This document shows positions 10,450-58,092 of a stretch of DNA of 64,000 nucleotides, piece by piece. The position numbers and the translations under genes were made by a program. Location of the stretch: NCBI GenBank assembly GCA_963840195.1, contig CAWIYD010000015.1, forward strand, positions 8,112 through 72,111, in the 5' to 3' direction. Source of the DNA: an uncultured Actinomycetes bacterium (GTDB lineage: Bacteria > Actinomycetota > Actinomycetes > Streptosporangiales > Streptosporangiaceae). The first letter of the stretch is position 1. Each line of letters opens with the position of its first letter. Under the pieces are notes generated by a model. The model was given only the letters and a program-made list of their open reading frames with translations. It did no database searches and was not told the origin of the DNA.

Positions 10450-10495
10450 GTCATCCAGAATATCCGCTGAGCGGGAGCGGGTAATTCTCCAGGGA

Positions 10496-10951
10496 TTACT
10501 CGCGCTCGATCCTGCGCAACCCATGCGCAGGGGTCCACCACTCAACGACGAGCATCGTGGCCTTCTCATTGAGGTGCGTGTGCACGACCTCGGCGATGTC
10601 GGCATGGAAGCGGTCGCCGTCGGATCCCTTGGTGAGTGGCCCGGCATAGACCGCCCGCCCAGAGATCTTCGCCTCACCCGGCCACCGCGCTTCCGCGCCC
10701 TCGACCGGGTCGATCGTGGCGCTGTGCAGTGCGAACCGCGGGTCCCGGCCCAGGTCCGCGCCCTTGCGCGCGTTCGGCATCGAGCCGAAGGCGAGCTCGC
10801 CGTCCTCGAAGACCACCTCGATCCCGGAGATACGCGGCGACCCGTCGGCTCGCAAGGTGGCAATTGTCTTGTGTTTGCGCCCGTCGAAGAGCCCCCGCAC
10901 GCGCTGCGCGAACTCAGGTTCCGCACGCTCGACGTCCAGCCACGCCGTCAT
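10496..10951 (-). CDS. pyridoxamine 5'-phosphate oxidase family protein
   Basis: Intact 151-aa ORF. The pattern ...GRKHKTIATLRADGSPRISGIEVVFEDGELAFGSMPNARKGADLGRDPRFALH... is typical of small actinobacterial PNPOx/F420-binding split-barrel proteins. Confidence 0.8.
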   Translation of the reverse strand: MTAWLDVERAEPEFAQRVRGLFDGRKHKTIATLRADGSPRISGIEVVFEDGELAFGSMPNARKGADLGRDPRFALHSATIDPVEGAEARWPGEAKISGRAVYAGPLTKGSDGDRFHADIAEVVHTHLNEKATMLVVEWWTPAHGLRRIERE

Positions 10952-14357: not shown

Positions 14358-14500
14358 GGGCGGCACGTTACCGGTCCGCTGTGGGCGGCTCAGCCGGCGG
14401 GCTGGCCCTCGATGCGGCAGGAAGCGTGGGCTCTCTCTGCGGTAGGGCTGATGTCGCCGGGTACGCTCCCCCAAGAGCGGCTGGAGCACGGAGGCAACTG

Positions 14501-14860
14501 ATGTCGGCTGTCGAGATCGACGACTACCTGCAGCGCCTGGACGAGCCGAAGCGCTCGACGCTCAGCCGGCTGCGCCGCGACATCCTGGCCGTGGTCCCCG
14601 GCGCCGAGCAGTGCATCTCCTACGGCGTGCCCGGCTTCAAGATCGATGGCAAGACGATTGCAGGCTTTGCCGCCTTCAAGCACCACCTGAGCTACCTGCC
14701 CCACAGCGGCTCAGTGTTCCCCGAATTGGCCGGCGAGCTAGCCGGATACCAGAAGTCCTCCGGATCCCTGCACTTTCCCGTTGATCAGCCTCTGCCACCC
14801 GGGCTGGTCGAGAAGTTGATCGCCGTGCGGCTACGGCAGGCCTTCCCTCCCGGGCCTTGA
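14501..14860 (+). CDS. DUF1801 (YdhG-like) domain protein
   Basis: ATG 14501 preceded by GGAGG (14490-14494). MSAVEIDDYLQRLDEPKRSTLSRLRRDILAVVPGAEQCISYGVPGFKIDGKTIAGFAAFKHHLSYLPHSG.... Confidence 0.8.
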   Translation: MSAVEIDDYLQRLDEPKRSTLSRLRRDILAVVPGAEQCISYGVPGFKIDGKTIAGFAAFKHHLSYLPHSGSVFPELAGELAGYQKSSGSLHFPVDQPLPPGLVEKLIAVRLRQAFPPGP

Positions 14861-14905
14861 AGCCAGCGGGCCGCCGGGGCTGGGGAAGCCCCAGCGCGCA
14901 GGTGC

Positions 14906-15361
14906 TCATCCCCCTGCTGGCCCGCAGCTAGACGTCTTGCGCGGCCAGTCATCCACCCGGCGGAACGTCTGCGCCACCACGAGGGTGTCGTCGCCGACAG
15001 TGAATTCCGGGTCATCCATGGCGGCGCGCATCTCCGCCGAGTGCCAGAACTGCTCATGCCCGGCCCGCCATTCCGCGACCGAGGCGTACCCCTCACCCTC
15101 GCCGAGGGCGTGCGCCAGGTCGACATCGGCCAGGCGGACCACCCGCACCTCGGTGGTCTCGATCACCGCGACTGGGTCACCCGCGGAATCGATCACAGCC
15201 TGCCGCAGCCCGGGAGCGGGCAGCGGCGAACCGTCCTGCTCATAGTCCGCGATCAGCCCGCTGGTGGTCGTCTTGCGGCCGGCCAGGATCGCGGCGACCA
15301 GCTGATCACGCAGCGGTCCCGGGAACGCGAACTCCACCACGGGCAGGTCCTCCGTCGGCAC
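14906..15361 (-). CDS. ASCH domain-containing protein
   Basis: Intact 151-aa ORF: ...LRDQLVAAILAGRKTTTSGL...VRVVRLADVDLAHALGEGEGYASVAEWRAGHEQFW.... Confidence 0.8.
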   Translation of the reverse strand: MPTEDLPVVEFAFPGPLRDQLVAAILAGRKTTTSGLIADYEQDGSPLPAPGLRQAVIDSAGDPVAVIETTEVRVVRLADVDLAHALGEGEGYASVAEWRAGHEQFWHSAEMRAAMDDPEFTVGDDTLVVAQTFRRVDDWPRKTSSCGPAGG

Positions 15362-19332: not shown

Positions 19333-22300
19333 TCAGCCGTAGAACAGCCGCTCCATGACGGCGCGGGCCCGGCGCGCGGTGCGCCGGTAGTCCTCGACCA
19401 GGTCCTGGCCGCCATCGGGCGGGTAGCCGAGGATCCTGGCCACCGCGCTCAGCTCGGCCTGCTTGACCGGCAGCATGTCCGAGGGGCGGCCGCGCAGCAG
19501 CACGACCGCGTTGCGGATCCTGGTGGCCAGCCGCCAGGAGGCGGCCAGCGCGGCCGCGTCGTCGGCGCGGATCAGGCCCGCCTGCTCGGCCGCCGACAGC
19601 GCCGCGAGGGTGCGGGTGGTCCGCAGCCCGGCCACCTCATAGGCGTGGGTGAGCTGCAGCAGCTGGACCACCCACTCCACGTCGGACAGGCCGCCGGGGC
19701 CCAGCTTGAGATGCAGGGCGGGGTCAGTGCCACGGGGCATCCGTTCGGCTTCCATGCGTGCCTTGAGCCGCCTGATCTCCCGCACCGAGGCCTCGGAGAT
19801 GCCGCCCGCGGGGTACCGGAACTCATCGGCCATCTCCCGGAAGCGGTGGCCGAGCTCCCGGTCCCCCGCGGCGGGCTCGGCCCGGAGCAGCGCCTGCGCC
19901 TCCCAGGCGAGCGACCAGCGCTCGTAGTAGGCGCGGTAGGACGCGAGCGTGCGGACCAGCGGGCCCTGGCGGCCCTCCGGCCGCAGCCCGGGATCGATCT
20001 GCAGGGGCGGATCGGGGGCGGGCTGGCCGAGCAGCCTGCGCATCTCCTCGGCCACCGCGTGCGCGGCCCGCGATGCCGCCTGCTCCGGCGCGCCGGGCAG
20101 CGGGTCGTGCACGAACATCACGTCCGCGTCGCTGCCGTAACCGGTCTCCCGGCCGCCGAACCGGCCCATGCCCACCACGAGCACCCGGGTGGGCAGCGGT
20201 CCCCCCTCCTCCCGCTCGACGTGGCGGATCGCCGCGTCCAGCGCGCCCCCGATGGCCACCGCCGTGATCACCGTCAGCGCCTCGCTGGACTCCTCCACCG
20301 AGGTCAGCCCGAGCAGGTCCGCGGCCGCGGTGCGGAGCAGCTCGCGGCGGCGCAGCGCGCGGACCGCCTGCGCCGCCCCATCGGCGGTGGCGTGCCTGCT
20401 GACGACCGCGGCCACCTCGGCGTGCAGCGCCGCGGCCGGGCGCGGGGCCAGCTGCTCGTCCGAGCCGAGCAGGGCGACCGTCTCGGGGGCGCGCATCAGC
20501 AGGTCCGTCGCGTAGCGGCTGGAGGCGAGCAGCCGGGCCATCCGGCGGGCCACGTTCGTGTCGTCGCGGAGCAGCCGCAGGTACCAGGGCGAGTCCCCCA
20601 GGGCATCGCTGACCTGGCGGAACGCCAGCAGCCCGGCGTCCGGCTGGGCCGCGTCGGCGAACCATCCCAGCATCACCGGCAGCAGCGTGCGCTGGATCGA
20701 GGCCCGCCGGGACACCCCGGAGGTGAGGGCCTCGATGTGCCGCAGCGCCCCGGCCGGGTCGGCGTAGCCGAGGGCCTCGAGCCGGGCCCGGGCCTCCTCC
20801 CGGGTCAGCCGGACCGCGTCCGGTGGGCAGCCGGGCCACCGCATCCAGCAGCGGGCGGTAGAACAGCTTCTCGTGCAGCCGCCGGGCCTCCCGGGCATGC
20901 TGCCGCCACTGGGCCATCAGCTCGGCGGCCGGGTCGGCACGCGACGGCGGCGCCGGGGGCGGCCGCGCCGTCCCGGGTGCGGGCCCGGCGCAGCGCGCGG
21001 CCCAGCCGGCGCAGCGCCGCGTCGTCCTCCGGGAGGGTGTGGGTGCGCCGCAGCTGGCGGAGCTGCAGCAGGTGCTCGACGGTGCGCAGGAAGCGGTAGG
21101 CGGAGGCCATCGTGGCCGCGTCCTCCCGGCCGACGTAGCCGCCCTTGGCCAGCGCGGCCAGCGCCGGGAGGGTGCCCCGTTCCCGCAGCGCCTCATCGGT
21201 CCGGCCGTGCACCAGCTGGAGCAGCTGCACGGCGAACTCGATGTCGCGCAGCCCGCCCGGCCCGAGCTTGAGCTGGCGCGGGGCCTCGCCGGGGGCCAGG
21301 TTGCCGATCACCCGGCGGCGCATCGCCTGCACGTCCGCCACGAAGTGGGGCCGCCGCGAGGCCTGCCACACCATCGGGCTCAGCGCGTCGATGTACGCCT
21401 GTCCCAGCTCCCGGTCGCCGGCCACCGGGCGGGCCTTGAGCAGGGCCTGGAACTCCCAGGTCTTGGCCCAGCGCTCGTAGTAGGCGCGGTGGCTGGCCAG
21501 GGTGCGCACCAGGGGGCCGTCCCGGCCTTCCGGGCGCAGGTTCGGGTCCACCGGGAACAGCGCCCCTTCGGCGGTGGCCTGCGAGCAGACCCGGACCAGG
21601 CCGGCCGCCAGCCGGGTAGCGGTGCGCAGCGCCGCGGTCTCGTCCGGTCGGGCCATCGCGGGCGAGGCGGGGTGCGCCGCAGGCGTGTCCGCGCCGAGCG
21701 CGCGATCTCGCCGGGGGTTCCGGGGGGTCGTCGCCCGCGGGGCTGGCAGCGCGGCGCGGCCACGAAGATCACGTCTACGTCGCTGGCGTAGTTGAGTTCC
21801 CGGCCGCCGCACTTGCCCATGGCGATGACCGCCAGCCGGGCCGGTGCCGCGTCGTCCGGCAGCTGTGACCGGGCGATGGCCAGCGCCGCCTCCAGCGCCG
21901 CGGCCGCCAGGTCCGCGAGTTCCGCCGCGGTCTCATCCACGGTCACCGCGCCGGTGAGGTCCCGTGCCGCCAGCTGCAGCAGGCGGCGGCGGTAGGCCGC
22001 GGGCAGCGCGGTGGCTGGATCACCGCCGTGGGCGGCGGCCGGGTCCGCCACCGGGGCGGCCTCGTCGGGACGGGCGCCGACCGCCCGCAGCAGCTCGGCC
22101 CGCAGGTCGCCGGCGGACGCCCCGTGCAGGGCATCCGGCCCGGACAGCACGTGCCAGTCCCCCGGGTGGCGGGCCAGGTGGTCACCGAGAGCCGTGCTGG
22201 CGCCGAGCACCGCCGTGAGCCGGGCGCGCAGCCCGGCGTCCTCGCGCAGCGCCCCGGTCAGGGCACCGTCACGGGGCATCCGGGCCAGCGCGGCCAGCGC

Positions 22301-22465
22301 CAGATCCGGGTCGGCCGCGGCGGCGAGCGCGGCCAGCAGGCTCGCGTCGGCACCGTCCACGTCCAGGGCCAGGTCGTCGCTGATGATCCGCTCGGCCCGG
22401 GCTGCGTCGGCGAAGCCCATCCGGGCCAGCCTCCCAGCCGGTGTCGTCCTCCGGCGCACGCTCAC
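19333..22465 (-). pseudogene. glnE: bifunctional glutamine-synthetase adenylyltransferase/adenylyl-removing enzyme GlnE, at least 3 frame changes
   Basis: Colinear GlnE pieces in four minus-frame segments. (1) 22465 down to about 21780: ...[28 protein letters not shown]. (2) About 21650-20960: ...[40 protein letters not shown]...[15 protein letters not shown].... (3) About 20960-20830: ...[34 protein letters not shown]. (4) 20830-19333: the second nucleotidyltransferase half ...VVGMGRFGGRETGYGSDADVMFV...IDPGLRPEGRQGPLVRTL.... Confidence 0.9.
21650..21742 (+). repeat. GC-rich palindromic repeat (E-element) copy inside glnE
   Basis: GGGCCATCGCGGGCGAGGCGGGGTGCGCCGCAGGCGTGTCCGCGCCGAGCGCGCGATCTCGCCGGGGGTTCCGGGGGGTCGTCGCCCGCGG aligns position by position with the units at 40819-40990. 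Confidence 0.8.
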
Positions 22466-22604: not shown

Positions 22605-22662
22605 GCCGGAGGGTTCCCCGGCCTAGCCGGGGGGGAGTGCTAGGCCCGGGGAACCCTCTGGC
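22605..22662 (-). terminator. long GC-rich hairpin at the 3' end of the SARP gene
   Basis: Arms GCCGGAGGGTTCCCCGGCCTAGC (22605-22627) and GCTAGGCCCGGGGAACCCTCTGGC (22639-22662), with one mismatch, one bulge and an 11-nt loop. The annotated stop (22640-22642) lies inside the right arm. No U-tract (common in actinobacteria). Confidence 0.4.
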
Positions 22663-25600
22663 TCCCTAACAGAAGCCGGGAGGCTCCGGCGCCGGGGCCG
22701 TCAGAGACGGCCCCGGCAGGGGGGTGCACCGGGGGGGGTAGGTGCACAACGGATAGTCTCCGCCGGCCCGGTAACGTCCCGGTAGCGTCAGTTAGCGAAG
22801 GGATTGTCAGGCTCCGACCGCGTGGTCGGCACGTAGCCGCCCAGGCAGCGTGCCCGTGCCCGCGGCCGCCGGAGATGGTGCCCGGCCGCGGCGGCGCCTC
22901 GCCGCGCAGCCTGGCCCGGACCTGGTCCGCGTCCGAGTGGTTCAGGTCCTCCAGGATGGTCAGCGCGTCCTGCCAGGCCTGCTCGGCCTGCCCCGGCTCG
23001 CCGATCGCGTGGTAGGCGTCCCCGAGGTGGACCAGCATCGTGGTCTGGTAGTAGCCCGGCCGGAAGCCCTCGATGGTGCGCAGCGCGGTGCGCAGGCAGC
23101 CGATCGCCTCTTCCAGCCGGCCCAGGTGGAACAGCACGTAGCCGACGCTGTCCCAGGTGGCGGCCTGGTTGAGCGGGTCCCCGTGGCCCTGGTACATGCC
23201 GAGCGCCTGCTCGCAGTACTCCAGGGCCTGCTCATAGTCGCCGAGCTTGGCGTGCATCCAGCCGACCCCGTTGAGCATCCTGGCCTGGCCCGGCTCGTCG
23301 CCTTCCTCCCGGTACAGGTCGAGGGACAGCTGGGCGTGCCCGAGCGCCTCGGCGAGCCGGCCCTGCCGCTCGGCCAGCAGCATGATCTCGTTGTGCGCGC
23401 GGGCCTCACCGAGCCGGTCGCCGGCTTGGCGGTGCAGGTCCAGGGACTGACGGCAGTAGTCGCGCGCCTCGGCGAGCTGGCCGAGCCGGCCGTAGGCCGC
23501 GCCGAGGTCCCGGCAGGCGTGGGCCTGGCCGGTCAGGTCACCGAGGCGCTCGGCCGCGGCCACCGCGGTCCGCTGGATGGCGACCTGGTCGTGCCAGTAG
23601 CCGGCCCGGTCGAACAGCAGCCACACCGCCCACGGCAGCTGCCACGCGTAGCTGCCGAACCCGGCCTGGTCGGCCAGCGCGATCGCGGCCAGCAGGACCT
23701 GCCGCTCGGCGGCGAACCAGTCGCGCGCCTCGCTCACCGAGCTCAGGGTCTCCGGGGTGACGCCCGGCTGCGGGGGCGCCAGCCGCACGTGGGCCCGGGT
23801 CGGGTTGAGGGCCAGGCTGCCCGAGTAGGCGCTGTGCAGGTAGTGGTCCAGGACCCGGTGCACCGCCTGCCGCCGCTCCGCCTCGTCGTCCGTGGTCCGG
23901 GCCAGGTCGGCCGCGTAGGCCCGGAGCAGGTCATGGAAGGCGTAGCGGCCCGGGGCGTGCTCGGCGATCAGGTGCGCATCCGCCAGCTCGGCCACCGCGG
24001 CCGCGGCCGCCGGCGGCTCCAGCGCGGCCAGGCTGGCCGCGGCCGCGATGCTGACGTCCGGCCCGGGGTGCAGGCCGAGCAGCCGGAACAGCCGGCCGGC
24101 GGTCTCGCTGAGCTGCTCGCAGGACCAGGAGAACACGGCCCGGACGCTGGCCACGGGATCCCCGGCGTCCAGCGCGTCCAGCCGTCCCTGCGCGTCGGCG
24201 AGCTCACGGGCCAGCCCGGTCAGCGGCAGGAACGGCCGGGCCGCCGCCCGGGCCGCCACGATGCTCAGCGCCAGCGGCAGCCGGGAGCACGACTCGATGA
24301 GCTGGTCGGCCGCCTCCGCCTCGGCGCCGGCCCGCTCGCCCAGCCGCCCGGCCAGCAGCTCATGGGCCTCGGCCGCGGTCAGCACGTCGAGCGGGACGAG
24401 CCGGGCGCCCTCGGTGGCGGCCAGGCCGGGCAGCCGGGCCCGGCTGGTCACCAGCACCAGGCAGGTCGGGCTGCCCGGCAGCAGCGGCCGCACCTGGGCG
24501 GGGTCGCGGGCGTTGTCCAGGATGACCAGCATCCGCTTATCCGCCAGCACGCTGCGGTACAGGGCCGCCTGGGCGTCGAGGCTGTCCGGGATCTGCTCCT
24601 CGGTCACCCCGAACGCGCCCAGGAACCAGCGGAGCGCATCGGCCGGGGTCACCGGCGCGCCCGACGGGCCGAAGCCGCGCAGGTTGACGTAGAGCTGGCC
24701 GTCGGGGAACTCCGCCGCGCACTGGTGCGCCCAGTGCACCGCGAGCGCCGTCTTGCCCGCTCCGGCCGTTCCGCCGATGACGAGGATCTTGACCGCCCGG
24801 GACGCGGCGGCGTCGCGCATCCAGGCGTGCAGTTCAGCCAGTTCCGCGCTGCGCCCGGCGAAGTGGGCCACGCCGGCCGGCAGCTGGCGCGGCACGACGC
24901 CGGCCTCGCGGCCGCCCTGGCCCGCCTGGACGGCCAGGGCGCCTGGTGCGGCCGTTCCCGGGACGGCGGCGGCCGGGCTCCCGGCGGGCGCCCCGCCCGG
25001 GCTCGCGGGCGGGTCTCCGGCCGGCCTCCGCACCCGGTCCTGGCCGTCCCGGCCCGGCCCGGCGGAGCGGATCCGGTCCTGCCCGGCCTTGGCCGGCCCG
25101 GGCGGGCGGCCCCGGCCGCTGCTGCGCCGCCGCGGCCCGCTCGCGCGCCGGCCGGCGGCGGTCCCGGCCGGCGCCGCACCGTCAATGGCGCCATGCTCAC
25201 GGGGCGGGCGCAGGAAGCCGGCCAGCGCCGGACCCGGCGCGGCCAGCCCCGGGTCGGCCGCCAGGATGCCGACATGCAGGTCACGAAGTTCCCCGCCGGG
25301 TTCCACGCCGAGTTCATCCACCAGCATCCGCCGGGTCCGCTGGTAGGCGGCCAGCGCCTCGGCCTGCCGTCCGCAGCGGTACAGGGCCAGCATCAGCTGG
25401 GCATGGAAGCGCTCCCGCCACGGGTGGTCGCGGGCCAGCTGGGTGAGCTCGGCGACCAGCTCGGCGTGGCGGCCCTGGGCCAGCCCGGCGTCCATCCGCC
25501 ATTCCTGGGCCTGCATCCGCAGCGCGTCCAGCCGCGGCACTTCCGCCGTGATCAGCGCGTTCGAGGGCACGTCGACCAGCGGGTTCCCGCGCCACAGGCC

Positions 25601-26062
25601 GAGCGCCTCGCCAAGCACCTCCCAGGTCCGCGCGGCGCTGGCCGCCGGGTCGCCGCCCTGCCGGACCGCGTCGGCGCCCTGCGCGCACAGCGTGGTGAAG
25701 TGCAGCGCATCCACCTCGGCGGGCGTGGCTTCCAGCGCGTAACCAGGGTCACGGGTGATGATCCGGGCGCCGGCCACCGGCCCGAGGACGTGGCGGAGCC
25801 GCTTCACGTAGTTGCGGATCGCCACCCGGGCACCGGACGGGGGCGCACCGTCCCAGATGACTTCGGCCAGCTCGTCGTAGGAGGCCACCTGCCCAGCACG
25901 GAGGGCCAGCGCGGCCAGGATCACCCGCTGCTTGGGTGCAGGGACGGTCACCTCGGCGCCGTCAGCCCGAACCATTAATGGCCCGAGCACTCCCACCCAG
26001 AACACCGACCCGTAACCCCGATCCCTGTCCCCGCTCGCCGCCCCGGCGCCAGCTCCCGCCAC
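22640..26062 (-). CDS. AfsR/SARP-family regulator (OmpR-type wHTH + BTAD + NB-ARC ATPase + TPR)
   Basis: Intact 1140-aa ORF. N-terminus ...VGVLGPLMVRADGAEVTVPAPKQRVILAALALRAG...; BTAD ...RFHAQLMLALYRCGRQAEALAAYQRTRRMLVDELGVEPGGELRDL; a Pro/Gly/Ala linker; P-loop VIGGTAGAGKTALAV, ...RMLVILDNA...LVTSR...; multiple TPR-like repeats (...GDRLGEARAHNEI...GDEPGQARMLNGVGWMHAKLGDYEQALEYCEQAL...). The start is ambiguous (GTG 26062, or GTG about 25996 giving M-GVLGPL). The last roughly 85 codons are non-TPR low-complexity running through hairpins. Confidence 0.9.
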   Translation of the reverse strand: MAGAGAGAASGDRDRGYGSVFWVGVLGPLMVRADGAEVTVPAPKQRVILAALALRAGQVASYDELAEVIWDGAPPSGARVAIRNYVKRLRHVLGPVAGARIITRDPGYALEATPAEVDALHFTTLCAQGADAVRQGGDPAASAARTWEVLGEALGLWRGNPLVDVPSNALITAEVPRLDALRMQAQEWRMDAGLAQGRHAELVAELTQLARDHPWRERFHAQLMLALYRCGRQAEALAAYQRTRRMLVDELGVEPGGELRDLHVGILAADPGLAAPGPALAGFLRPPREHGAIDGAAPAGTAAGRRASGPRRRSSGRGRPPGPAKAGQDRIRSAGPGRDGQDRVRRPAGDPPASPGGAPAGSPAAAVPGTAAPGALAVQAGQGGREAGVVPRQLPAGVAHFAGRSAELAELHAWMRDAAASRAVKILVIGGTAGAGKTALAVHWAHQCAAEFPDGQLYVNLRGFGPSGAPVTPADALRWFLGAFGVTEEQIPDSLDAQAALYRSVLADKRMLVILDNARDPAQVRPLLPGSPTCLVLVTSRARLPGLAATEGARLVPLDVLTAAEAHELLAGRLGERAGAEAEAADQLIESCSRLPLALSIVAARAAARPFLPLTGLARELADAQGRLDALDAGDPVASVRAVFSWSCEQLSETAGRLFRLLGLHPGPDVSIAAAASLAALEPPAAAAAVAELADAHLIAEHAPGRYAFHDLLRAYAADLARTTDDEAERRQAVHRVLDHYLHSAYSGSLALNPTRAHVRLAPPQPGVTPETLSSVSEARDWFAAERQVLLAAIALADQAGFGSYAWQLPWAVWLLFDRAGYWHDQVAIQRTAVAAAERLGDLTGQAHACRDLGAAYGRLGQLAEARDYCRQSLDLHRQAGDRLGEARAHNEIMLLAERQGRLAEALGHAQLSLDLYREEGDEPGQARMLNGVGWMHAKLGDYEQALEYCEQALGMYQGHGDPLNQAATWDSVGYVLFHLGRLEEAIGCLRTALRTIEGFRPGYYQTTMLVHLGDAYHAIGEPGQAEQAWQDALTILEDLNHSDADQVRARLRGEAPPRPGTISGGRGHGHAAWAATCRPRGRSLTIPSLTDATGTLPGRRRLSVVHLPPPVHPPAGAVSDGPGAGASRLLLGSQRVPRA

Positions 26063-27439: not shown

Positions 27440-27543
27440 GACAGCCTGTCCTTGCTGGTCAGCGGCTTTTACCTGCGTGGATGCGGGCAGCACAGCATAT
27501 CGGCTGACCGAGCCTGCCCTGGGCGCCAGTGTCTCGCGACCGT

Positions 27544-27559
27544 GTTACCGGGACGTTAC
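27544..27559. promoter_or_regulatory. candidate GlnR box (GTTAC-n6-GTTAC) in the glnA2/nadE divergent spacer
   Basis: GTTAC (27544-27548), CGGGAC, GTTAC (27555-27559). This fits the gTnAc-n6-GaAAc architecture described for actinobacterial GlnR sites, about 105 nt from the glnA2 start and about 80 nt from the nadE start. Confidence 0.35.
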
Positions 27560-27639
27560 AAGGCCGTCGCGAGTCTACTCGCCTGCTGCCCGGCCGGCCA
27601 GGCCGGGCAGCAGGCCGGACCGCGTCATACAGTGACAAC

Positions 27640-29541
27640 GTGACCAGGCTGCGAATTGCCCTCGCCCAGGTGAATTCGACCGTCGGCGACCTGGCCGGCA
27701 ACGCCGCGACGGTGCTCGAGTGGAGCCGCCGCGCGGCGGAGGCCGGGGCCGCCCTCGTCGTGTTCCCGGAGATGATGCTCACCGGGTACCCGGTGGAGGA
27801 CCTCGCGCTGCGCGCCTCGTTCGTGACCGCGTCCATGGCCACGCTGGAGGACACCGCCCGGCAGCTGGCCGCGGGCGGCCTGGGCGGCATCGCGGTGGTC
27901 ACCGGCTACCTGGGCCGGCGGGCCGGGGGCACGCCCCGGGCCGGCGAGCCGGCCGGCGCCCCGCAGAACGCCGCGGCCCTGCTCTACGGCGGCGCGGTCG
28001 CGGTGACCACGGCCAAGCACCACCTGCCCAACTACGGCGTGTTCGACGAGTACCGCTACTTCGTGCCGGGCGACCGGCTGCCGGTGGTCCGCGTCCCCGC
28101 CAGTGCTGGCCCGGGGGCGCGACCCCCCGGAACCCCCCGCGATCCGCTGGCTCGGAGAGACCCGCCTTCGGCGGGCCCCGCCTCGCCAGCGGCGGTGGAC
28201 GTGGCCATCGCCATCTGCGAGGACCTGTGGCAGGACGGCGGCCCGGTGGCGGTCACCCGCCAGGCCGGGGCCGGCCTGCTGGTGGTGCCGAACGCCTCCC
28301 CGTACGAGCGCGGCAAGCACGAGGCCAGGCGGCAGCTGGTCGCCCGCCGGGCCCGCGAGGCGGGGGCCGCGCTGGCCTACGTGAACATGATGGGCGGCCA
28401 GGATGAGCTGGTCTTCGACGGGGACTCGATCATCGTGGACGCGGCCGGCGAGCTGATTGCCCGCGGGCCGCAGTTCGAGGAGGCCCTGCTGGTGGCCGAC
28501 CTGGACCTGCCCGCCGCCCGGGACGACATCCTCCCCGGCGGGGACACCGCCGCCGACCCCAGCGACGGCACCGTGATGACCGTGCACCGGGTCACGCTCG
28601 GTGCCAGCCCGGGTGGGCCACCCCCCGGAACCCCCCGCGATTCGCCGGCCGCCGCCGGGCCGCTGGTGGCACCCCGGCTGCCGCCGCTGGCGGAGGTCTA
28701 CGCCGCGCTGGTCACCGGCGTGCGCGACTACGTGGGCAAGAACGGCTTCCGGTCGGTGATCCTGGGCCTGTCCGGCGGGATCGACTCGGCCCTGGTGGCC
28801 ACGATCGCCGCCGACGCGCTCGGCCCGGAGCGGGTGCACGTGGTGCTGATGCCGAGCCGGTACTCCTCGGAGCACTCGGTCAGCGACGCGGAGGACCTGG
28901 CCAAGCGGCAGGGCCTGCAGGCCCGCACGGTGCCCATCGCGGCCATGGTGGACGCGTTCGAGGGCGAGCTGGACCTGGCCGGGCTGGCCGCGGAGAACCT
29001 GCAGTCCCGGGTCCGCGGGGTGATCCTGATGGGGCTGAGCAACGCCGAAGGGCACCTGGTGCTCACCACCGGCAACAAGAGCGAGATCGCCACCGGGTAC
29101 TCCACCCTGTACGGGGATTCGGCGGGCGGCTTCGGCGTGATCAAGGATGTGCTCAAGACGCTGGTGTGGGACCTGGCCCGGTGGCGGAACGAGCAGGCCG
29201 CGGCCCGCGGGGAGACGCCGCCCATCCCGGAGAACTCGATCACCAAGCCGCCGAGCGCCGAGCTCGCCCCCGGTCAGCTGGACACCGACTCCCTTCCCGA
29301 CTACGGAACCCTGGACGCGCTGCTCGACGACTACGTGGAGAAGGACCTGGGCGCGGCGGAGCTCATCGCGGCGGGGCATGACCCGGACCTGGTGGACCGG
29401 GTCATCCGGCTGGTGGACCGGGCCGAGTACAAGCGGCGGCAGTACCCGCCGGGCACGAAGATCACGCCGCGCAACTTCGGCCGGGACCGGCGGCTGCCGA
29501 TCACCAACCGGTGGCGCGAACCGCACCCGGGCGCTAGCTGA
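27640..29541 (+). CDS. nadE: glutamine-dependent NAD+ synthetase
   Basis: GTG 27640 gives VTRLRIALAQVNSTVGDLAGN.... CN-hydrolase domain (VVFPEMMLTGYP, KHHLPNYGVFDE, AIAICEDLW). Synthetase domain with LGLSGGIDSALVA, ...LTTGNKSEIATGYSTLYGDS..., ...KRRQYPPGTKITPRNFGRDRRLPITNRW. The ORF is intact despite two repeat-derived insertions (see findings). Confidence 0.95.
   Translation: MTRLRIALAQVNSTVGDLAGNAATVLEWSRRAAEAGAALVVFPEMMLTGYPVEDLALRASFVTASMATLEDTARQLAAGGLGGIAVVTGYLGRRAGGTPRAGEPAGAPQNAAALLYGGAVAVTTAKHHLPNYGVFDEYRYFVPGDRLPVVRVPASAGPGARPPGTPRDPLARRDPPSAGPASPAAVDVAIAICEDLWQDGGPVAVTRQAGAGLLVVPNASPYERGKHEARRQLVARRAREAGAALAYVNMMGGQDELVFDGDSIIVDAAGELIARGPQFEEALLVADLDLPAARDDILPGGDTAADPSDGTVMTVHRVTLGASPGGPPPGTPRDSPAAAGPLVAPRLPPLAEVYAALVTGVRDYVGKNGFRSVILGLSGGIDSALVATIAADALGPERVHVVLMPSRYSSEHSVSDAEDLAKRQGLQARTVPIAAMVDAFEGELDLAGLAAENLQSRVRGVILMGLSNAEGHLVLTTGNKSEIATGYSTLYGDSAGGFGVIKDVLKTLVWDLARWRNEQAAARGETPPIPENSITKPPSAELAPGQLDTDSLPDYGTLDALLDDYVEKDLGAAELIAAGHDPDLVDRVIRLVDRAEYKRRQYPPGTKITPRNFGRDRRLPITNRWREPHPGAS
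28108..28192 (-). repeat. E-element copy inside nadE (glutaminase domain), translated in frame
   Basis: GGCCCGGGGGCGCGACCCCCCGGAACCCCCCGCGATCCGCTGGCTCGGAGAGACCCGCCTTCGGCGGGCCCCGCCTCGCCAGCGG is the reverse complement of the 40.9-kb unit. It encodes ...GPGARPPGTPRDPLARRDPPSAGPASPAA.... Confidence 0.85.
28608..28648 (-). repeat. partial E-element copy (G/C-hairpin half) inside the nadE interdomain linker
   Basis: CCCGGGTGGGCCACCCCCCGGAACCCCCCGCGATTCGCCGG matches one half of the element. It encodes ...SPGGPPPGTPRDSPA.... Confidence 0.75.
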
Positions 29542-36857: not shown

Positions 36858-37775
36858 ATGCCTGGAGAAACCCCGACCGGGGTGCTGCCCGCCCAGCGGG
36901 GCAGCACCGCCAGCCCCGCGCCGCCCCGGGCCGCCCGGGAGGCGGGCGCCGCCCGCCCCGCACCTGCGCCCCCGCCAGCGCAGCAACAACGTCCCCGGCG
37001 GCGCAACCGCGCCTGGTACCGGGTGATCAGCCCGCTGGTGTTCCTCGCCGTCTGGCAGCTCGTCAGCGTGACCGGGCTGGTTTCGCAGCAGAAGCTGCCG
37101 CCGCCCAGCACGGTGTTCCACACGGCGGTCACCCTGATCACCACCAACTCCGCCGCCTACGGCACGCTGCAGTCGGCGATGCTCGTGTCCCTGGAGCGGG
37201 TGGCGATCGGCTTCGCCGTGGGCGGTGCGGCCGGCCTGATCCTCGCGGTCATCGCCGGGCTGAGCCGGCTCGGCGAGAACTCGGTCGACCCGCTCATGCA
37301 GATGCTGCGCACGCTGCCGCTGTTCGGCCTCATCCCGGTGTTCATCGTCTGGTTCGGCATCGGCGACCTGCCTAAGATCCTGCTGATCGCCCTGGGTGCC
37401 GCCATCCCGCTGTACCTGAACACCTTCTCCGGCATCCGGAACGTGGACAGCAAGCTGGCCGAGGCGGGGACCACGCTCGGGCTGAGCCGCACCGAGATGA
37501 TCCGGCACGTCATCCTGCCCGGCGCGCTCCCGCAGATCCTGGTCGGCCTGCGGCAGAGCCTGGGCGTCGCCTGGCTGGCGCTGGTGGTCGCCGAGCAGAT
37601 CAACGCGAACGCCGGGCTCGGCTTCATGATCAGCCAGGCCACCCAGTTCCTGCGCAACGACGTGATCTTCGTGGCCCTGCTCGTGTACTGCGTGCTCGGC
37701 CTGCTGACCGACGCGCTGGTCCGGCTGCTGGAAAGGAGGGCACTGGCATGGCGCCGCGGACTGCTGGAAGCCTGA
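36858..37775 (+). CDS. ssuC: aliphatic sulfonate ABC transporter permease
   Basis: ATG 36858. Body ...ISPLVFLAVWQLVSVTGLV...LPPPSTV...SLERVAIGFAVGG...PLFGLIPVFIVWFGIGDLPKILLIALGAAIPLYLNT... (BPD_transp_1, SsuC/TauC/NrtB type). Confidence 0.85.
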   Translation: MPGETPTGVLPAQRGSTASPAPPRAAREAGAARPAPAPPPAQQQRPRRRNRAWYRVISPLVFLAVWQLVSVTGLVSQQKLPPPSTVFHTAVTLITTNSAAYGTLQSAMLVSLERVAIGFAVGGAAGLILAVIAGLSRLGENSVDPLMQMLRTLPLFGLIPVFIVWFGIGDLPKILLIALGAAIPLYLNTFSGIRNVDSKLAEAGTTLGLSRTEMIRHVILPGALPQILVGLRQSLGVAWLALVVAEQINANAGLGFMISQATQFLRNDVIFVALLVYCVLGLLTDALVRLLERRALAWRRGLLEA

Positions 37776-38506
37776 GCCCCCACTTCCGGGGGATCGCCCC
37801 CGGGGCCAGCACGGCCCGGATCCGCGGCCTCAGCCGCCGGTTCGGCGACCGCCTGGTACTGGACAACCTGGACCTGGACATCGCGCCGGGCGAGTTCATC
37901 GCGCTGATCGGCCGCAGCGGCAGCGGCAAGTCCACCCTGCTGCGCGCACTGGCCGGGCTGGACCGTGAGGTCACCGGGGAACTCGAGGTGAACGGCACCG
38001 CGGCGGTGGCGTTCCAGGAACCACGGCTGCTGCCCTGGCGCCGGGTGCGGGACAACGTCAGCCTGGGGCTGCGCACCGCCGGTGCGGCCGGCGTGGCCCG
38101 CTCCGCCCTGGACGAGGTCGGGCTGACCGCCCGGGCGGATGCCTGGCCGCTGACCCTGTCCGGCGGCGAGGCGCAGCGGGCCGCGCTGGCCCGGGCCCTG
38201 GTCCGCGAGCCCAGCCTGCTGCTGCTGGACGAGCCGTTCAGCGCGCTGGACGCGCTGACCCGGATCACCATGCACCGGCTGGTGCTCCGGCTGTGGGCGC
38301 ACCACGAGCCGGCCGTGCTGCTGGTCACGCACGACGTGGACGAGGCCCTGGCCCTGGCCGACCGGGTCCTCGTGCTGGCCGACGGCCGGATCGGCTACAG
38401 CGGCCGGATCGACGTCCCGCGGCCGCGGGACCGGGACCATCCCGATCTCACCGGACTACGGACCCGCCTGCTCACCGAGCTGGGCGTTGCCTCGGAGGGA
38501 AACTGA
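37748..38506 (+). CDS. ssuB: sulfonate ABC transporter ATP-binding protein
   Basis: Walker A GRSGSGKSTLLR, Q-loop AFQEPRLLPW, signature LSGGEAQRAALARAL, Walker B LLLLDEPFSALD. Overlaps the ssuC end. Confidence 0.9.
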   Translation: MAPRTAGSLSPHFRGIAPGASTARIRGLSRRFGDRLVLDNLDLDIAPGEFIALIGRSGSGKSTLLRALAGLDREVTGELEVNGTAAVAFQEPRLLPWRRVRDNVSLGLRTAGAAGVARSALDEVGLTARADAWPLTLSGGEAQRAALARALVREPSLLLLDEPFSALDALTRITMHRLVLRLWAHHEPAVLLVTHDVDEALALADRVLVLADGRIGYSGRIDVPRPRDRDHPDLTGLRTRLLTELGVASEGN

Positions 38507-39594: not shown

Positions 39595-40787
39595 GCCTGA
39601 CGTTCCACTGGTTCCTGCCCACCACCGGTGACGGCCGGTCGATCATGGGCCGGGGGCACAGCCTGCCGCCGGCCGGCCAGGGCGGCGGCCCGGGCCAGCG
39701 GCCGGCCGCCGCCCCGCACATCCGCGGCGCGGCCACCCAGGAGCGGCCGCCGGACATCGAGTACCTGGCCCAGGTGGCCCGGTCCGCGGAACAGCTCGGC
39801 TTCGAGGCGGTGCTGACCCCCACCGGCACCTGGTGCGAGGACGCCTGGCTGGTCACCGCCGCGCTGACCCGGGAGACCCGGCGGCTCAAGTTCCTCGTCG
39901 CGTTCCGGCCCGGGCTGACCTCGCCGACCCTCGCGGCGCAGATGGCCGCCACCTACCAGCGGCTGTCCGGCGGCCGCCTGCTGCTCAACGTGGTCACTGG
40001 CGGCCAGGCCGACGAGCAGCGGCGGTTCGGTGATCATTTGTCTCATGACGAGCGTTATGCGCGAACCGGGGAGTTCCTGGAGATCGTCCGCGGCGCGTGG
40101 GGCAGCCAGCCGTTCGACTTCCGTGGCCGCTACTACGACGTCGAGGGCGCGACCGTGCTCCAGCCGCCGGAGCCGCTCCCGGGCATCTACTTCGGCGGGT
40201 CGTCCGCCGCGGCCGGCCCGGTGGCCGCCCAGCACGCCGACGTCTACCTGACCTGGGGCGAGCCGCCCGGCCAGGTCGCGGAGAAGCTGGTCTGGATCCG
40301 TGAGCTGGCCGCCGCCCAGGGCCGCACGATGCGGTTCGGCATCCGGCTGCACGTGATCACCCGGGACACCGAGGCGGACGCCTGGGCCGAGGCCAGCAGG
40401 CTGCTGGACTACCTGGACCCGGCCGAGATCACCAAGGCGCAGCAGATCCTGGGGGCCAGCGAGTCGGTCGGCCAGGACCGGATGCGCGCCCTGCACGCCG
40501 CGTACCGCCATGGCGGCTCCGCGCAGGACCTGGAGATCTACCCGAACCTCTGGGCCGGGGTCGGCCTGGTCCGCGGCGGGGCCGGGACCGCCCTGGTCGG
40601 CTCGCACGAGAAGGTCGCCGACCTCATCGAGGAGTACGCATCGCTCGGCATCACCGAGTTCATCCTGTCCGGCTACCCCCACCTCGAAGAGGCGTACTGG
40701 TTCGGGGAGGGGGTGCTGCCCGAGATCCGGCGGCGGGAGGCGGCCGCCGGGAACACCAGCCGGTCGCCGCTGCGCGTGAGCGCATGA
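39591..40787 (+). CDS. ssuD: FMNH2-dependent alkanesulfonate monooxygenase
   Basis: ATG 39591 overlaps the ssuA stop. MSLTFHWFLPTTGDGR...LTPTGTWCEDAWLVTAAL...LKFLVAFRPGL...LLLNVVTGG...HDERYARTGEFLEI... is colinear with the E. coli SsuD pattern as I recall it. Confidence 0.9.
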   Translation: MSLTFHWFLPTTGDGRSIMGRGHSLPPAGQGGGPGQRPAAAPHIRGAATQERPPDIEYLAQVARSAEQLGFEAVLTPTGTWCEDAWLVTAALTRETRRLKFLVAFRPGLTSPTLAAQMAATYQRLSGGRLLLNVVTGGQADEQRRFGDHLSHDERYARTGEFLEIVRGAWGSQPFDFRGRYYDVEGATVLQPPEPLPGIYFGGSSAAAGPVAAQHADVYLTWGEPPGQVAEKLVWIRELAAAQGRTMRFGIRLHVITRDTEADAWAEASRLLDYLDPAEITKAQQILGASESVGQDRMRALHAAYRHGGSAQDLEIYPNLWAGVGLVRGGAGTALVGSHEKVADLIEEYASLGITEFILSGYPHLEEAYWFGEGVLPEIRRREAAAGNTSRSPLRVSA

Positions 40788-40790
40788 ATG

Positions 40791-40995
40791 CCCCGGGGCC
40801 TTCGGGGGGTCGCCCCCCGGGCCTTCGCAGGCGAGGCGGGGCGCGGCGGAGCCGTGTCCCCACCGAGCCGGCGAATCGGGGGGGCTCCGGGGGGTCGCCC
40901 CCCCGGGCCTTCGCAGGCGAGGCGGGGCGCGGCGGAGCCGTGTCCCCCCGAGCCGGCGAATCGCGGGGGGTTCCGGGGGGTCGCCCCCCCGGGCC
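40791..40995 (+). repeat. tandem array of the E-element (partial end + 2 x 86-bp units) between ssuD and the FMN reductase gene
   Basis: GGGCCTTCGCAGG recurs at 40819 and 40905 (period 86), and GGGCC again at 40991. Unit: GGGCCTTCGCAGGCGAGGCGGGGCGCGGCGGAGCCGTGTCCCC(A/C)C(C)GAGCCGGCGAATCG(C)GGGGGG(C/T)TCCGGGGGGTCGCCCCCCC. Several internal stem-loops (CCGGGGGG-TCG-CCCCCCCGG; GCCGGCGAA...TTCGCAGGC). Confidence 0.9.
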
Positions 40996-41013
40996 AATAC
41001 AGAGGAGGCACCG

Positions 41014-48566: not shown

Positions 48567-48597
48567 CCGCCACCATGCGCCCCTTCCGGCGTTACCT

Positions 48598-48683
48598 GCC
48601 CGAGGGGACGATCCCCCGGATCCCCCTGGATTCGCTGGCCCGGAGGGGACACCCGCACCGGCGCGCCCCCGCTTCGCCAGCGG
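48598..48683 (-). repeat. degenerate E-element copy (intergenic)
   Basis: GCCCGAGGGGACGATCCCCCGGATCCCCCTGGATTCGCTGGCCCGGAGGGGACACCCGCACCGGCGCGCCCCCGCTTCGCCAGCGG is colinear with the reverse complement of the 40.9-kb unit, with multiple substitutions. Confidence 0.7.
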
Positions 48684-48736
48684 TCGCACCCACGATACCC
48701 GGCGGAGCGGACATCACTCCCGCTAGCGGACGGTGA

Positions 48737-57207: not shown

Positions 57208-57233
57208 GCCAGCGATGCTACGCCGCTCTGCTA

Positions 57234-57315
57234 GCCCGGGGGCGACCCCCGCAGCCCCCGTCCATTCGCCGGTTCGGCGGGGACACGCCTGCGGCGAGCC
57301 CCCCTGGCCCGCGAA
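57234..57315 (-). repeat. degenerate E-element copy between livF-like stop and cutA start
   Basis: GCCCGGGGGCGACCCCCGCAGCCCCCGTCCATTCGCCGGTTCGGCGGGGACACGCCTGCGGCGAGCCCCCCTGGCCCGCGAA is colinear with the reverse complement of the 40.9-kb unit. Confidence 0.7.
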
Positions 57316-57317
57316 TA

Positions 57318-58092
57318 TCAGGCTTCGCGGTCGGCGGCCGGCTTGGCGGCTGGCCCGCGGCCGCCGAGGAAGGACTCCACGAATTCCGGGCTGGCGGACA
57401 GTTCCGCGGGCGTCCCCACCATCCGCACCTCGCCGCCGCCCAGCACGTAGGTCCGGTCCGAGATGGCCAGCACCGCGCGGGCCCGCTGTTCCACGATGAG
57501 CACCGCGGCCCCGCTGGCGGCCAGATGGCGGACGTGCTCCTCCAGCAGCGCGGTGGCCACGATCGGCGCCAGGTTCGCGGTCGGCTCATCCAGCAGGAAG
57601 ACCCCCGGGTCGAGCATCAGCACCCGGCCCATGGCCAGCATCTTCCGCTCCCCGCCACTCAGCTTCCCGGCGCTGCGGGTCAGCATGTCAGCCGAGCCGC
57701 GGGAAGATGGCCAGCACGCGCTCGACGCGTTCCGGGATCTGACGGCGGGGCAGCAGGTAGCCGCCCATCTCCAGGTTCTCCCGGACGCTCAGCGGGCCGA
57801 ACACGTCGTCCACCTGCGGCACGTAGCCGACCGCCTCGCGGGCGATCTGCTCCGGCGCCGCGTTGGTAAGGTCGCGGTCGCCGACCCGCACCGTCCCCGA
57901 CGAGATCCGGACCACCCCGACCAGGCTCTTGAGCAGGGTGCTCTTGCCCGAGCCGTTCGGCCCGACCAGCGACACCACCTCGCCGGGCATGGTGTTCACC
58001 GTGATGTCCCGGATCACCGGGTCGCCGCCGTAGCCGGCGGTGATGCCCTCGGCGTGCAGCGGCAGGCCGTGCAGCGCAAGCTCAGCCGACAA
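57318..58092 (-). pseudogene. livF: branched-chain amino acid ABC transporter ATP-binding protein (LivF-like), one frameshift at about 57687
   Basis: Walker A GPNGSGKSTLL and ...VPQVDDVFGPLSVRENL...IFPRLG, then an in-frame TGA (57688-90). One nt later, ...MLTRSAGKLSGGERKMLAMGRVLMLDPGVFLLDEPTANL... continues to 57318. Confidence 0.85.

Follow-up and report, generated by a model that had tools for sequence, protein, structure and literature searches.

The window (the whole 64 kb stretch of DNA that was analysed) contains nadE and, within this gene, two copies of a hairpin-forming repeat built from modules termed H1 and H2. The features of the gene are as follows.

27640..29541, plus strand: nadE, glutamine-dependent NAD+ synthetase (CN_hydrolase and NAD_synthase domains); the closest solved structure is PDB entry 3N05 (Streptomyces avermitilis; E = 4.7e-219)
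28101..28192, minus strand: nadE site 1, a full H1+H2 copy read in frame as SAGPGARPPGTPRDPLARRDPPSAGPASPA (profile match, insertion breakpoints, alignments of filled and empty alleles)
28103..28138, minus strand: H2 module of site 1 (one mismatch to the H2 consensus)
28145..28191, minus strand: H1 module of site 1 (copy alignment, pair counts, fold)
28216..28218, plus strand: TGC codon of the CN-hydrolase nucleophile (Cys183 in P0001 numbering, in AICEDLW; an invariant column aligned with AICEDLW of 3N05)
28585..28649, minus strand: nadE site 2, a partial copy (H2 and the 3' end of H1) read as GASPGGPPPGTPRDSPAA (30.2 bits, E = 2.7e-7)

The reading frame runs without interruption from 27529 to 29541 and reads ...VVRVPASAGPGARPPGTPRDPLARRDPPSAGPASPAAVDVAIAICEDLW. 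Translation probably starts at the GTG at 27640, the ORF itself opening at 27529 and orthologues beginning MTRLRIALAQ. Pfam entries PF00795 and PF02540 are recorded for the window protein (P0001) and for every homologue matched, and the Glu-Lys-Cys triad is intact (E34, K116 and C183, all invariant in a 71-sequence alignment). With its N-terminal CN-hydrolase domain, its C-terminal NAD_synthase domain and this triad, the protein is, by sequence, a NadE. The HMMER alignment to 3N05 breaks exactly at the insert, leaving query residues 143–174 unpartnered; in 3N05 one residue lies between ...VRL(153) and GVDIALAICEDLW (155-). The catalytic Cys codon follows the end of the insert by eight codons. 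The initial annotation had described a repeat read in frame in an uninterrupted nadE, directly before the catalytic-Cys strand, and had given a spacing of about two residues for Streptomyces-type NadE; the uninterrupted frame and the 3N05 alignment bear out the former, and the spacing was essentially right.

Site 1 was matched in a repeat search of the window to a tandem array at 40.8 kb, positions 28107–28191 pairing with 40912–40996 (85 nt, 87% complementary). Against the family profile it scores 73.9 bits (nhmmer, E = 8e-21). The full reverse copy of the 86 bp array unit that had been annotated in nadE is upheld; its E value is near 1e-20, and chance alone would give 0 such matches. Its H1 consists of an outer stem CGCTGGC/GCCAGCG, a tandem G-A, GGGG:CUCU(C) and an inner hairpin CCCGCC-GAA-GGCGGG, and its H2 is G6-TTCC-G6-TCG-CGC5-GGGCCAGCAC, coding for GARPPGTP. 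CTGGCG is present on both sides of site 1, overlapping the element's own end. Site 2 is located in the linker joining the glutaminase and synthetase domains, a linker that is highly variable across lineages.

The family unit is about 90–95 nt long and forms two hairpins. The H1 consensus is an irregular stem with the inner hairpin CGCGCC-GNA-GGCGUG, the H2 consensus is G6-TTCC-G6-TCG-C7-GGGC-YAGCA, and the conserved ends are TYCGC.GGC (5') and GGGC-YAGCA (3'). In 1.06 Mb of DNA from relatives, 36 full-length and ~140 H2-only copies were found with nhmmer. The hairpins are conserved: in a 31-copy alignment, 92.9% of the cells at paired positions can pair, versus 49–59% when the partners are slid; changes on both sides occur in nine pairs, all in H1; the covariation score was reached by 0 of 500 shuffles; and the inner H1 hairpin was found independently by RNAalifold. 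The fold energy is strand-asymmetric (−60/−68 versus −52/−55 kcal mol−1), one strand folding better because of frequent G-U pairs. Searches of the window with the Rfam covariance models gave 0 matches at the gathering score; the best score for the array was 16 bits, versus gathering scores of 55–59, and none of these subthreshold matches was credible. No blastn match to the element was obtained in plasmid and phage collections.

Many uncultured Streptosporangiales MAGs carry the family, including genomes with an insert-free nadE. The commonest location is the short spacer between co-directional genes of the same operon, as single copies or head-to-tail arrays, and only about 3–4 of 23 full-length sites are genic; most copies in the sampled DNA are intergenic. 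H2 modules also lie within soxA-like, GGDEF and murD genes, and H2-type G6-N4-G6-TCG-C6-7 modules with other 5' hairpins occur in cultured Streptosporangiales and Frankia. All arrays found are head-to-tail (40.8 kb in the window, and loci L070, L078, L043 and L095), with unit boundaries that vary from locus to locus. Strand-specific RNA elements were considered for the intergenic copies and ruled out, full copies being both sense (9) and antisense (~13) to co-directional flanking genes.

At seven sites in 64 kb, the density in the window is about one per 9 kb. A 27 nt H2 pattern (up to three mismatches) gave four matches in the window versus 0.00 expected from shuffles. The sites outside nadE are listed below.

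21648..21745, plus strand: full copy in glnE (the gene is on the minus strand and the element is antisense to it; profile search)
37776..37813, plus strand: H2 module alone, within the part of an ABC-transporter ATPase gene that encodes the N-terminal tail (RBS at 37731–37740, ATG at 37748)
40795..41005, plus strand: tandem array H2-H1-H2-H1-H2, period 86 (TRF, profile search)
48587..48688, minus strand: full copy upstream of a YbjQ-like minus-strand gene, just ahead of its RBS and ATG (profile search)
57223..57322, minus strand: full copy in sense orientation, bounded by an ABC-ATPase-like gene (TGA at 57318–57320) and cutA (ATG at 57207) (profile search)

The last of these fills its spacer exactly. 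TRF delimits the array at 40795–40995 (period 86, 94% matches, 2.3 copies). It occupies the spacer between a luciferase-like monooxygenase gene, with its stop codon at 40785–40787, and an FMN reductase gene, whose RBS and GTG (41014) follow. In the window glnE copy the frame is broken within the element's G/C runs, and L003 and L004 have orthologous copies that keep the frame; the frameshift may be a long-read homopolymer error and, if so, the exact lengths of G/C runs in the assembly are not fully reliable. The glnE copy of L001 has no H1. At the ABC ATPase N-terminus, L002 and L003 carry an additional H1-H2 unit. A single preferred reading frame was ruled out, as the nadE and glnE copies use different frames. 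The copies in the nadE linker, in glnE and at the ABC ATPase N-terminus had not been noted in the initial annotation, nor had the H1+H2 build of the family and its occurrence in many MAGs.

Alignment of nadE from relatives, which had been suggested as a check, separates filled alleles at site 1 (the window, L124, L002 and L003; L124 is a short contig of a separate NCBI MAG) from empty ones (L006, L001 and L005). L006 has no site 1 although its flanks are about 96–97.5% identical, with megablast breakpoints at 28100 and 28189; the empty L006 allele reads PAGDAAVDV. The occurrence of the same insert in three to four independent assemblies, together with the near-identical but empty L006, shows that the insertion polymorphism is real rather than the product of a chimera, and the claim that a GC-rich palindrome had colonised a coding region is supported both by this absence and by the dispersed, structured family. 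The net gain had been put at about 31 codons; relative to the nearest empty alleles it is 78–81 nt, i.e. 26–27 codons. Among the assemblies filled at the same codon, the insert copies have diverged from one another. The L002 insert contains an extra 78 nt internal duplication and the L126 insert lacks 42 nt (H1), the frame being kept in both. In the L003 copy the hairpin has degenerated (42 bits versus 74 in the window). Site 2 is also polymorphic, and all four filled/empty combinations of the two sites are found among the nadE genes of close relatives, which requires recombination or repeated gain and loss.

An AlphaFold model of NadE places the insert between strands 136–142 and 176–180, with residues 146–172 at pLDDT <50; the mean pLDDT was 60.5 with 71 sequences, a moderate value, and 44.6 with 20 near-identical sequences. 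The insert is thus predicted to be an apparently disordered loop joining two β-strands, and its placement at the surface is suggested by homology to a β-hairpin turn in 3N05 and by this mediocre model. Its GC content at the three codon positions is 0.85/0.91/0.73, versus 0.76/0.54/0.94 for the nadE gene, so that coding periodicity is absent. At codon positions 1+2 the window and L003 have diverged by 0.10 within the insert, compared with 0.028 across the remainder of nadE. On these comparisons the insert is evolving close to neutrally and has the look of a passenger that is tolerated, in agreement with the tolerated loop that had been envisaged; conservation of the frame suggests that it is translated. 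Between 26 and 31 of 36 copies are free of stop codons in each of the six frames (~80%). The element is ~85% GC and stop codons are nearly absent for this reason; read-through would therefore follow from base composition, without evolved coding compatibility or special adaptation. Two protein-level searches were uninformative because the query is short and of low complexity: a search for the insert peptide with a 41-residue query gave zero word-sharing candidates, and phmmer against 1.84 billion representatives returned only the unrelated repetitive protein P0121. Taken together, we consider it probable (about 0.85) that nadE 28101–28192 belongs to a dispersed family of two-hairpin repeats of non-coding origin and that this copy is translated as an unconstrained, neutral loop.

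The distribution of copies suggests that the element is mobile. Copies would spread through a single-stranded hairpin intermediate acted on by a trans-acting enzyme of the REP/RAYT or IS200/IS605 kind, and local slippage would enlarge arrays. In nadE, one full copy has entered the β-hairpin turn just ahead of the strand with the catalytic Cys at its end, and the partial copy in the interdomain linker would be the older arrival. Any copy with a net length divisible by three would be translated, in NadE as a Pro/Gly/Arg/Ala-rich loop. The enzyme would tolerate it since each of the two sites is a turn or linker, where unrelated indels are also found in other lineages. Tandem duplication and deletion of H1 have since reshaped the insert. 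More tentatively, and as a possibility that we consider less probable than its negation, the H1-H2 elements and the wider H2-type modules might form an undescribed class of actinobacterial hairpin elements that move as single-stranded DNA and routinely give essential enzymes (NadE, GlnE, MurD and ABC ATPases) new disordered segments, whether loops, linkers or N-terminal tails.

Spread without any transposase, by ectopic gene conversion or template switching through GCTGGC/GCCAGC microhomology and with slippage at the G6/C7 hairpins producing arrays, duplications and hairpin deletions, is unlikely but carries real weight. In the sampled copies and loci no transposase, no terminal inverted repeat longer than 6 nt and no consistent target-site duplication were found; the two element ends share only the 6 nt of GCTGGC...GCCAGC, and no recurrent duplication was seen beside 30 copies other than that in nadE. 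A tblastn search with an approximate IS608 TnpA sequence as query gave no match in the ~1 Mb of loci sampled. The empty allele of the L001 type already has GCCAGCGGCGG, resembling the terminal CGCCAGCG of the element, and CTGGCG flanks the filled allele on both sides. Locus-specific boundaries of array units are what local duplication predicts, and the loss of H1 in L126 nadE and L001 glnE and the 78 nt duplication in L002 point the same way. Full length and ends are, however, well conserved at many unrelated sites in many genomes, and the strand-asymmetric G-U pairing has been kept, for which pure recombination would not select. Inverted pairs of elements were also considered as the borders of a transposase gene and were ruled out, since they enclose FAD oxidase, LigT-like and SerC-like genes.

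A recruited function, in which the hairpin pauses transcription or translation of nitrogen-metabolism genes or the insert is a new NadE-modulating protein segment, is improbable. Three copies do lie in glnE and nadE, which are neighbours and serve nitrogen metabolism, the nadE copy can still fold on its mRNA-sense strand (−55 kcal mol−1) and the insert adjoins the active-site strand; but nadE of very close relatives has no insert, the peptide is about neutral, the L003 hairpin has decayed, and the module is also found in unrelated genes in both orientations. It is very improbable that the insert is a native hypervariable, low-complexity NadE loop with a coincidental likeness to the repeat, or that the repeat derives from nadE. 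Unrelated insertions are found at the same loop elsewhere, such as (DGGSP)n, a 15 nt tandem repeat, in L125, P0011 and P0016, and the linker is variable, but the DNA match spans both hairpins (0 expected by chance), the insert has no coding periodicity, Streptomyces NadE has no insert and the family occurs in many genomes with an insert-free nadE. An assembly chimera or collapsed repeat is hardly credible: many related contigs are long-read metagenome assemblies and the window glnE frameshifts fall in element homopolymers, but diverged copies fill the same codon in the independent assemblies, including L124, and the nadE frame is intact.

The nadE element is best regarded as REP/MITE/RPE-like, a known kind of repeat of which it forms a new family. 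In the searchable literature, covered by sequence and by REP or MITE elements and RAYTs in actinobacteria, no description of this element or of in-frame repeats in actinobacteria was found, which agrees with the initial annotation. The comparison with Rickettsia palindromic elements (RPEs) made there is apt for the phenomenon. RPEs (Ogata et al., 2000) are described in PMC10969869 and PMC3184786 as dispersed palindromes of ~100 bp, some of them in frame in housekeeping genes and translated as additional segments that the fold accommodates. The nadE element is likewise dispersed, palindromic and insertion-polymorphic between close relatives, with in-frame copies that leave the ORF undisrupted (twice in nadE, in glnE of L003 and L004, and at the ABC ATPase N-terminus). 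The two appear to have no sequence relationship, the element being set apart from RPE-1 to RPE-10 by host and ~85% GC. RPE hosts are reduced, AT-rich, intracellular Rickettsia, whereas the host here belongs to another phylum and is a high-GC actinomycete that lives freely and has a large genome; the copies, moreover, are mostly intergenic and stop-free by base composition, and the element is bipartite, with H2 also found alone.

The REP/BIME sequences of Enterobacteria and Pseudomonas resemble the nadE element in their GC-rich, imperfectly paired hairpin, which carries a short, conserved tail of single-stranded sequence, in being abundant, mainly extragenic and intercistronic, and in their modular mosaic build. 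They differ in that REP clusters alternate in orientation, whereas the arrays here are head-to-tail; REPs have a GTAG head, whereas the element has a YAGCA tail on its 3' side; the unit comprises two different hairpins and copies also lie inside genes; and REPs have a cognate RAYT (Y1 HUH transposase), none being identified for the element in ~1 Mb of sampled loci. Palindrome-associated elements derived from IS200/IS605 (PATEs) have two subterminal hairpins, one functional strand and strand-asymmetric pairing, and lack terminal inverted repeats and target-site duplications. The nadE element shares the two hairpins and the asymmetric pairing and likewise shows no terminal inverted repeat longer than 6 nt and no consistent target-site duplication, but neither a TnpA/TnpB partner nor a conserved tetranucleotide for cleavage was identified. 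Bacterial MITEs (ERIC/RU-1, Correia, Nezha and the Coxiella QMITE) sometimes form in-frame fusions with host ORFs (PMC2759123, PMC5896051, PMC10969869) and are, like the element, small, non-autonomous and structured; the element differs in showing no terminal inverted repeat of about 15 bp or more (6 nt shared), and neither a parent IS nor a consistent duplication of the target site was seen. The actinobacterial MIRU, a repeat of 40–100 bp, is tandem in the intercistronic spacers of operons and abuts stop and start codons (PMC3184786), as the nadE element does. That source does not portray MIRUs as strong two-hairpin palindromes or as in-frame inserts within enzymes.

These observations extend selfish DNA in coding genes, best known from AT-rich, reduced Rickettsia, to the large, ~74% GC genomes of soil actinomycetes, and offer a simple explanation for the survival of inserts: a very GC-rich hairpin is open in almost any frame. 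Were the class of hairpin elements mobilized as single-stranded DNA real, it would be a steady source of protein-length variation in a major soil lineage. For annotation, the elements explain why lengths vary and frames seem to shift; they lie in core genes of these MAGs, and their G6/C7 runs are error-prone in long-read assemblies. The natural allele pairs of the essential NadE with and without the insert could be used to test the tolerance of nitrilase-fold loops beside the catalytic strand. Insert-bearing NadE is expected to yield the junction-crossing tryptic peptides VPASAGPGAR and DPPSAGPASPAAVDVAIAICEDLWQDGGPVAVTR.

The nadE gene of the window (GC content 73.7%) carries two copies of the element, a dispersed palindromic repeat built of two hairpin modules, H1 and H2.

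27529-29541, plus strand: nadE, two-domain glutamine-dependent NAD+ synthetase (open reading frame and protein search).
28101-28192, minus strand: site 1, a full copy within nadE shortly before the catalytic-Cys strand.
28585-28649, minus strand: site 2, a partial copy within nadE.
40795-40995: tandem array of element units (TRF: period 86, 2.3 copies, 94% matches).

A repeat search within the window paired positions 28107-28191 with 40912-40996 as an inverted repeat (85 nt, 87% complementary); together with the array and the open reading frame, this confirms the initial annotation, which had placed a full, reverse-oriented copy of an 86-bp repeat inside an uninterrupted nadE. Consensus patterns for the two halves of the unit each matched at element sites only (shuffles predict 0.00). 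The site 1 copy is translated without interruption as PASAGPGARPPGTPRDPLARRDPPSAGPASPAA, then VDVAIAICEDLW. The best solved relative of the window NadE is 3N05 from Streptomyces avermitilis (E = 4.7e-219), and the HMMER alignment of the two splits precisely at the insert, leaving query residues 143-174 without a partner. In 3N05 a single residue separates ...VRL from GVDIALAICEDLW, so the short spacing between these strands given in the initial annotation was right.

A NadE search returned relatives of 78-100% identity (592-682 residues), labelled as Streptosporangiales or Streptosporangiaceae MAGs, and the DNA of nine of these (loci numbered L) was compared with the window at site 1. The insert is present in the window, L124 (an independent NCBI MAG, GCA_044447215.1), L002 and L003; L126 has the H2 half alone, L001, L005 and L006 have no insert, and L004 and L125 have unrelated sequence. 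The loop is polymorphic: it is absent from L006, which Megablast aligned with the window at 97.5% and 96.5% identity on either flank, with breakpoints at 28100 and 28189. At site 1, very close relatives differ cleanly in having or lacking the insert, with a net gain of 81 nt relative to L005 and L006 and of 78 nt relative to L001. An assembly chimera is excluded because four independent assemblies carry the insert at one shared codon in copies that have diverged from each other.

Site 2, whose complementarity to the end of the array is 82%, comprises the H2 hairpin and the 3' end of H1. It falls within the interdomain linker of NadE and is translated as GASPGGPPPGTPRDSPAA. A longer version is found in L124 and decayed versions in L003, L004, L005 and L006; L001, L002 and L126 have none. 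All four combinations of sites 1 and 2 were seen among genomes with NadE at least 90% identical, and insert carriers were not grouped in a neighbour-joining tree of gap-free alignment columns. Both observations mean that the two sites were either reshuffled by recombination or repeatedly gained and lost.

Coding periodicity is absent from the insert: GC by codon position is 0.85/0.91/0.73, compared with 0.76/0.54/0.94 for nadE. Between the window and L003, divergence at codon positions 1 and 2 is 0.10 per site in the insert and 0.028 in the rest of nadE; the former lies near the position 3 value for the rest of nadE (0.112), so the insert evolves at a roughly neutral rate. The hairpins of the L003 copy are partly lost (profile score of 42 versus 74 bits). 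In L002 the insert later gained an internal duplication of 78 nt, and in L126 it lost 42 nt (H1); the frame was kept through both changes, and this is the best available sign that the insert is translated. Open reading of the element is itself a by-product of composition, since 26-31 of the 36 copies contain no stop codon in any one of the six frames. The better of the AlphaFold models of NadE, which is moderate overall (mean pLDDT 60.5), places the insert between strands 136-142 and 176-180 with pLDDT below 50, as is the site 2 segment (residues 313-332). At the site 1 hairpin turn another clade has an unrelated 15-nt tandem repeat, GGTTCCCCGGACGGC, encoding (DGGSP)n (L125, ~10440-10500, protein P0016; also proteins P0011 and P0012), and proteins P0013 and P0014 have an interdomain linker insert of ~80 residues. 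Given such unrelated inserts, both positions are indel hotspots and broadly permissive.

Aligned copies of the element are ~90-95 nt long. They begin with TYCGC.GGC, followed by H1 (outer stem CGCUGGC/GCCAGCG, tandem G-A, GG:CC and GGGG:CCCC steps, inner hairpin CGCGCC-GNA-GGCGUG), a short GAAUCG linker, H2 (G6-UUCC-G6-UCG-C7-GGGC) and a conserved 3' tail, YAGCA. For the H1+H2 structure, which was drawn by eye from the very sequences counted and is biased towards them, 92.9% of cells were paired, compared with 49-59% with slid partners. Changes on both sides occurred in nine pairs, every one in H1, and the observed covariation score was matched by none of 500 shuffles. The inner H1 hairpin was recovered independently by RNAalifold. 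The same program preferred to pair the first G-run of H2 with the C-run; H2 therefore has two competing hairpins. One strand seems to be under selection, given the many G-U pairs and the better folding of the 'forward' strand (-60 and -68 versus -52 and -55 kcal/mol).

A scan of the species-representative genome collection with the H2-core pattern gave at least 117 stretches; nearly all of the matches listed belong to MAGs of uncultured 'Actinomycetes' or Streptosporangiaceae, some assembled from long reads (MFD) and others from short reads (SMAG, JOPF, bog). In 1.06 Mb, 36 full-length and ~140 H2-only copies were found with a profile derived from the copies in the window. No match was obtained in Rfam or in the plasmid and phage collections searched, and neither the sequence strings of the element nor an earlier description of such an element in actinobacteria was found in the searchable literature. 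Loci from cultured Frankia, Thermomonospora, Actinomadura, Actinoallomurus, Allonocardiopsis, Nocardiopsis and Spirillospora (L014, L020, L038, L048, L051, L066, L094, L101 and L112), chosen by that same pattern, have the H2 core (G6-N4-G6-TCG-C6-7) and an A-rich tail, often after a different hairpin. The core in these genera may point to a wider superfamily.

Small repeats read in frame within genes are established for RPEs, ERIC/RU elements, pneumococcal repeats and Coxiella MITEs (PMC10969869, PMC3184786, PMC2759123). The element resembles RPEs in its effect on proteins, but its host is not Rickettsia and the RPE sequence families do not apply. It resembles REP/BIME in its usual location, but its arrays lack the alternating orientation of BIMEs; unlike MITEs, it has no long terminal inverted repeats. 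As the defining features tested for RPE, BIME and MITE failed, the element is filed as a new family of an established type of repeat.

Among the sampled loci, no long terminal inverted repeats, recurrent target duplication or transposase were seen. REP/RAYT and IS200/IS605-derived elements move as single-stranded hairpins, and the element shares with them strand-asymmetric pairing, a conserved single-stranded tail and a two-hairpin build. By this analogy, similar movement as a single-stranded hairpin would be the likeliest route of spread, a view held with low confidence. Spread by recombination only, seeded at the GCTGGC/GCCAGC ends of the element, is a live rival, and the L001-type empty nadE site already holds GCCAGCGGCGG. 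Local changes are directly visible: array unit boundaries vary between loci, H1 is gone at two sites and one copy has been reshaped by internal duplication.

The window array takes up the spacer that separates a luciferase-like monooxygenase gene from an FMN reductase gene, running from just past the stop codon to just ahead of the ribosome-binding site (RBS). The 57.2-kb copy occupies the whole gap between the TGA of one gene and the ATG of cutA, and the 48.6-kb copy immediately precedes the RBS of a YbjQ-like gene. Across all loci, most full copies separate genes that run in the same direction, and they occur in both orientations (9 sense, ~13 antisense), which speaks against a role that is strand-specific and purely at the RNA level. 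Density is ~1 site per 9 kb, the genome-wide copy number being extrapolated from one window. By our count ~3-4 of the 23 distinct full-length sites lie within genes, a fraction biased by the picking of loci by H2 pattern or nadE synteny; genic copies are a minority, yet recurrent. Those with H2 modules are as follows.

Window 37776-37813: H2-only module, N-terminal tail of an ABC-transporter ATPase.
L034 ~1723-1850: three tandem H2 modules with GGGCCAGCAC tail, in frame, sarcosine-oxidase-alpha-like gene.
L090 ~3590-3690: H2 module with GGGCCAGCAC tail, in frame, GGDEF domain.
L078 4143-4190: H2 module with GGGCCAGCAC tail, in frame, murD.
L031 5932-5995: H2 module with GGGCCAGCAC tail, in frame, RNase-H-like gene.

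The ATPase tail has an extra H1-H2 unit in L002 (20344-20448) and L003 (20105-20209), and the called protein is 29 residues longer; this unit is read in sense orientation, and the ATPase ATG overlaps the end of the permease gene. The GGDEF domain of L090 is split by its insert, the Pfam match then being in two pieces. In L078, a 3.5-unit array (1981-2243) is flanked on the minus strand by a weak PrmC_N match and an MTS methyltransferase domain, possibly inside one PrmC-like methyltransferase gene; the gene looks single, but the assembly has its two parts in different frames.

In L003 and L004 a glnE copy is read in frame, and the proteins are intact (1026 and 1025 residues); in L001 the copy lacks H1. 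The window glnE (19333-22465, minus strand) is split across three reading frames, with one frameshift within the G/C homopolymers of the element (~21700-21745) and one near 20805-20898; the L002 orthologue is also fragmented. Many contigs were assembled from long reads, and such assemblies are prone to errors in G6/C7 runs; the window frameshifts reflect either long-read homopolymer error or a real pseudogene.

Between glnE and glnA the window has a large BTAD/NB-ARC/TPR (SARP-type) regulator gene (22640-26062, minus strand), the orthologue of which is called as several fragments in L001, L002 and L125. In L001 a large serine recombinase gene (13765-15240; Resolvase, Recombinase, Zn_ribbon_recom) and an HTH gene break the PhzF-like region; both are missing from the syntenic region of the window. 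Two adjacent 2.2-kb segments of the window (49975-52125 and 52433-54587) share 77% identity, which indicates that a gene on the minus strand was duplicated in tandem to give paralogues. At 49807-49925 a 36-nt unit, GCACGGCCGCCGCCTCCCGTGGCACGGCCGCCCCAC, is repeated in tandem almost perfectly (3.3 copies, 98% matches).
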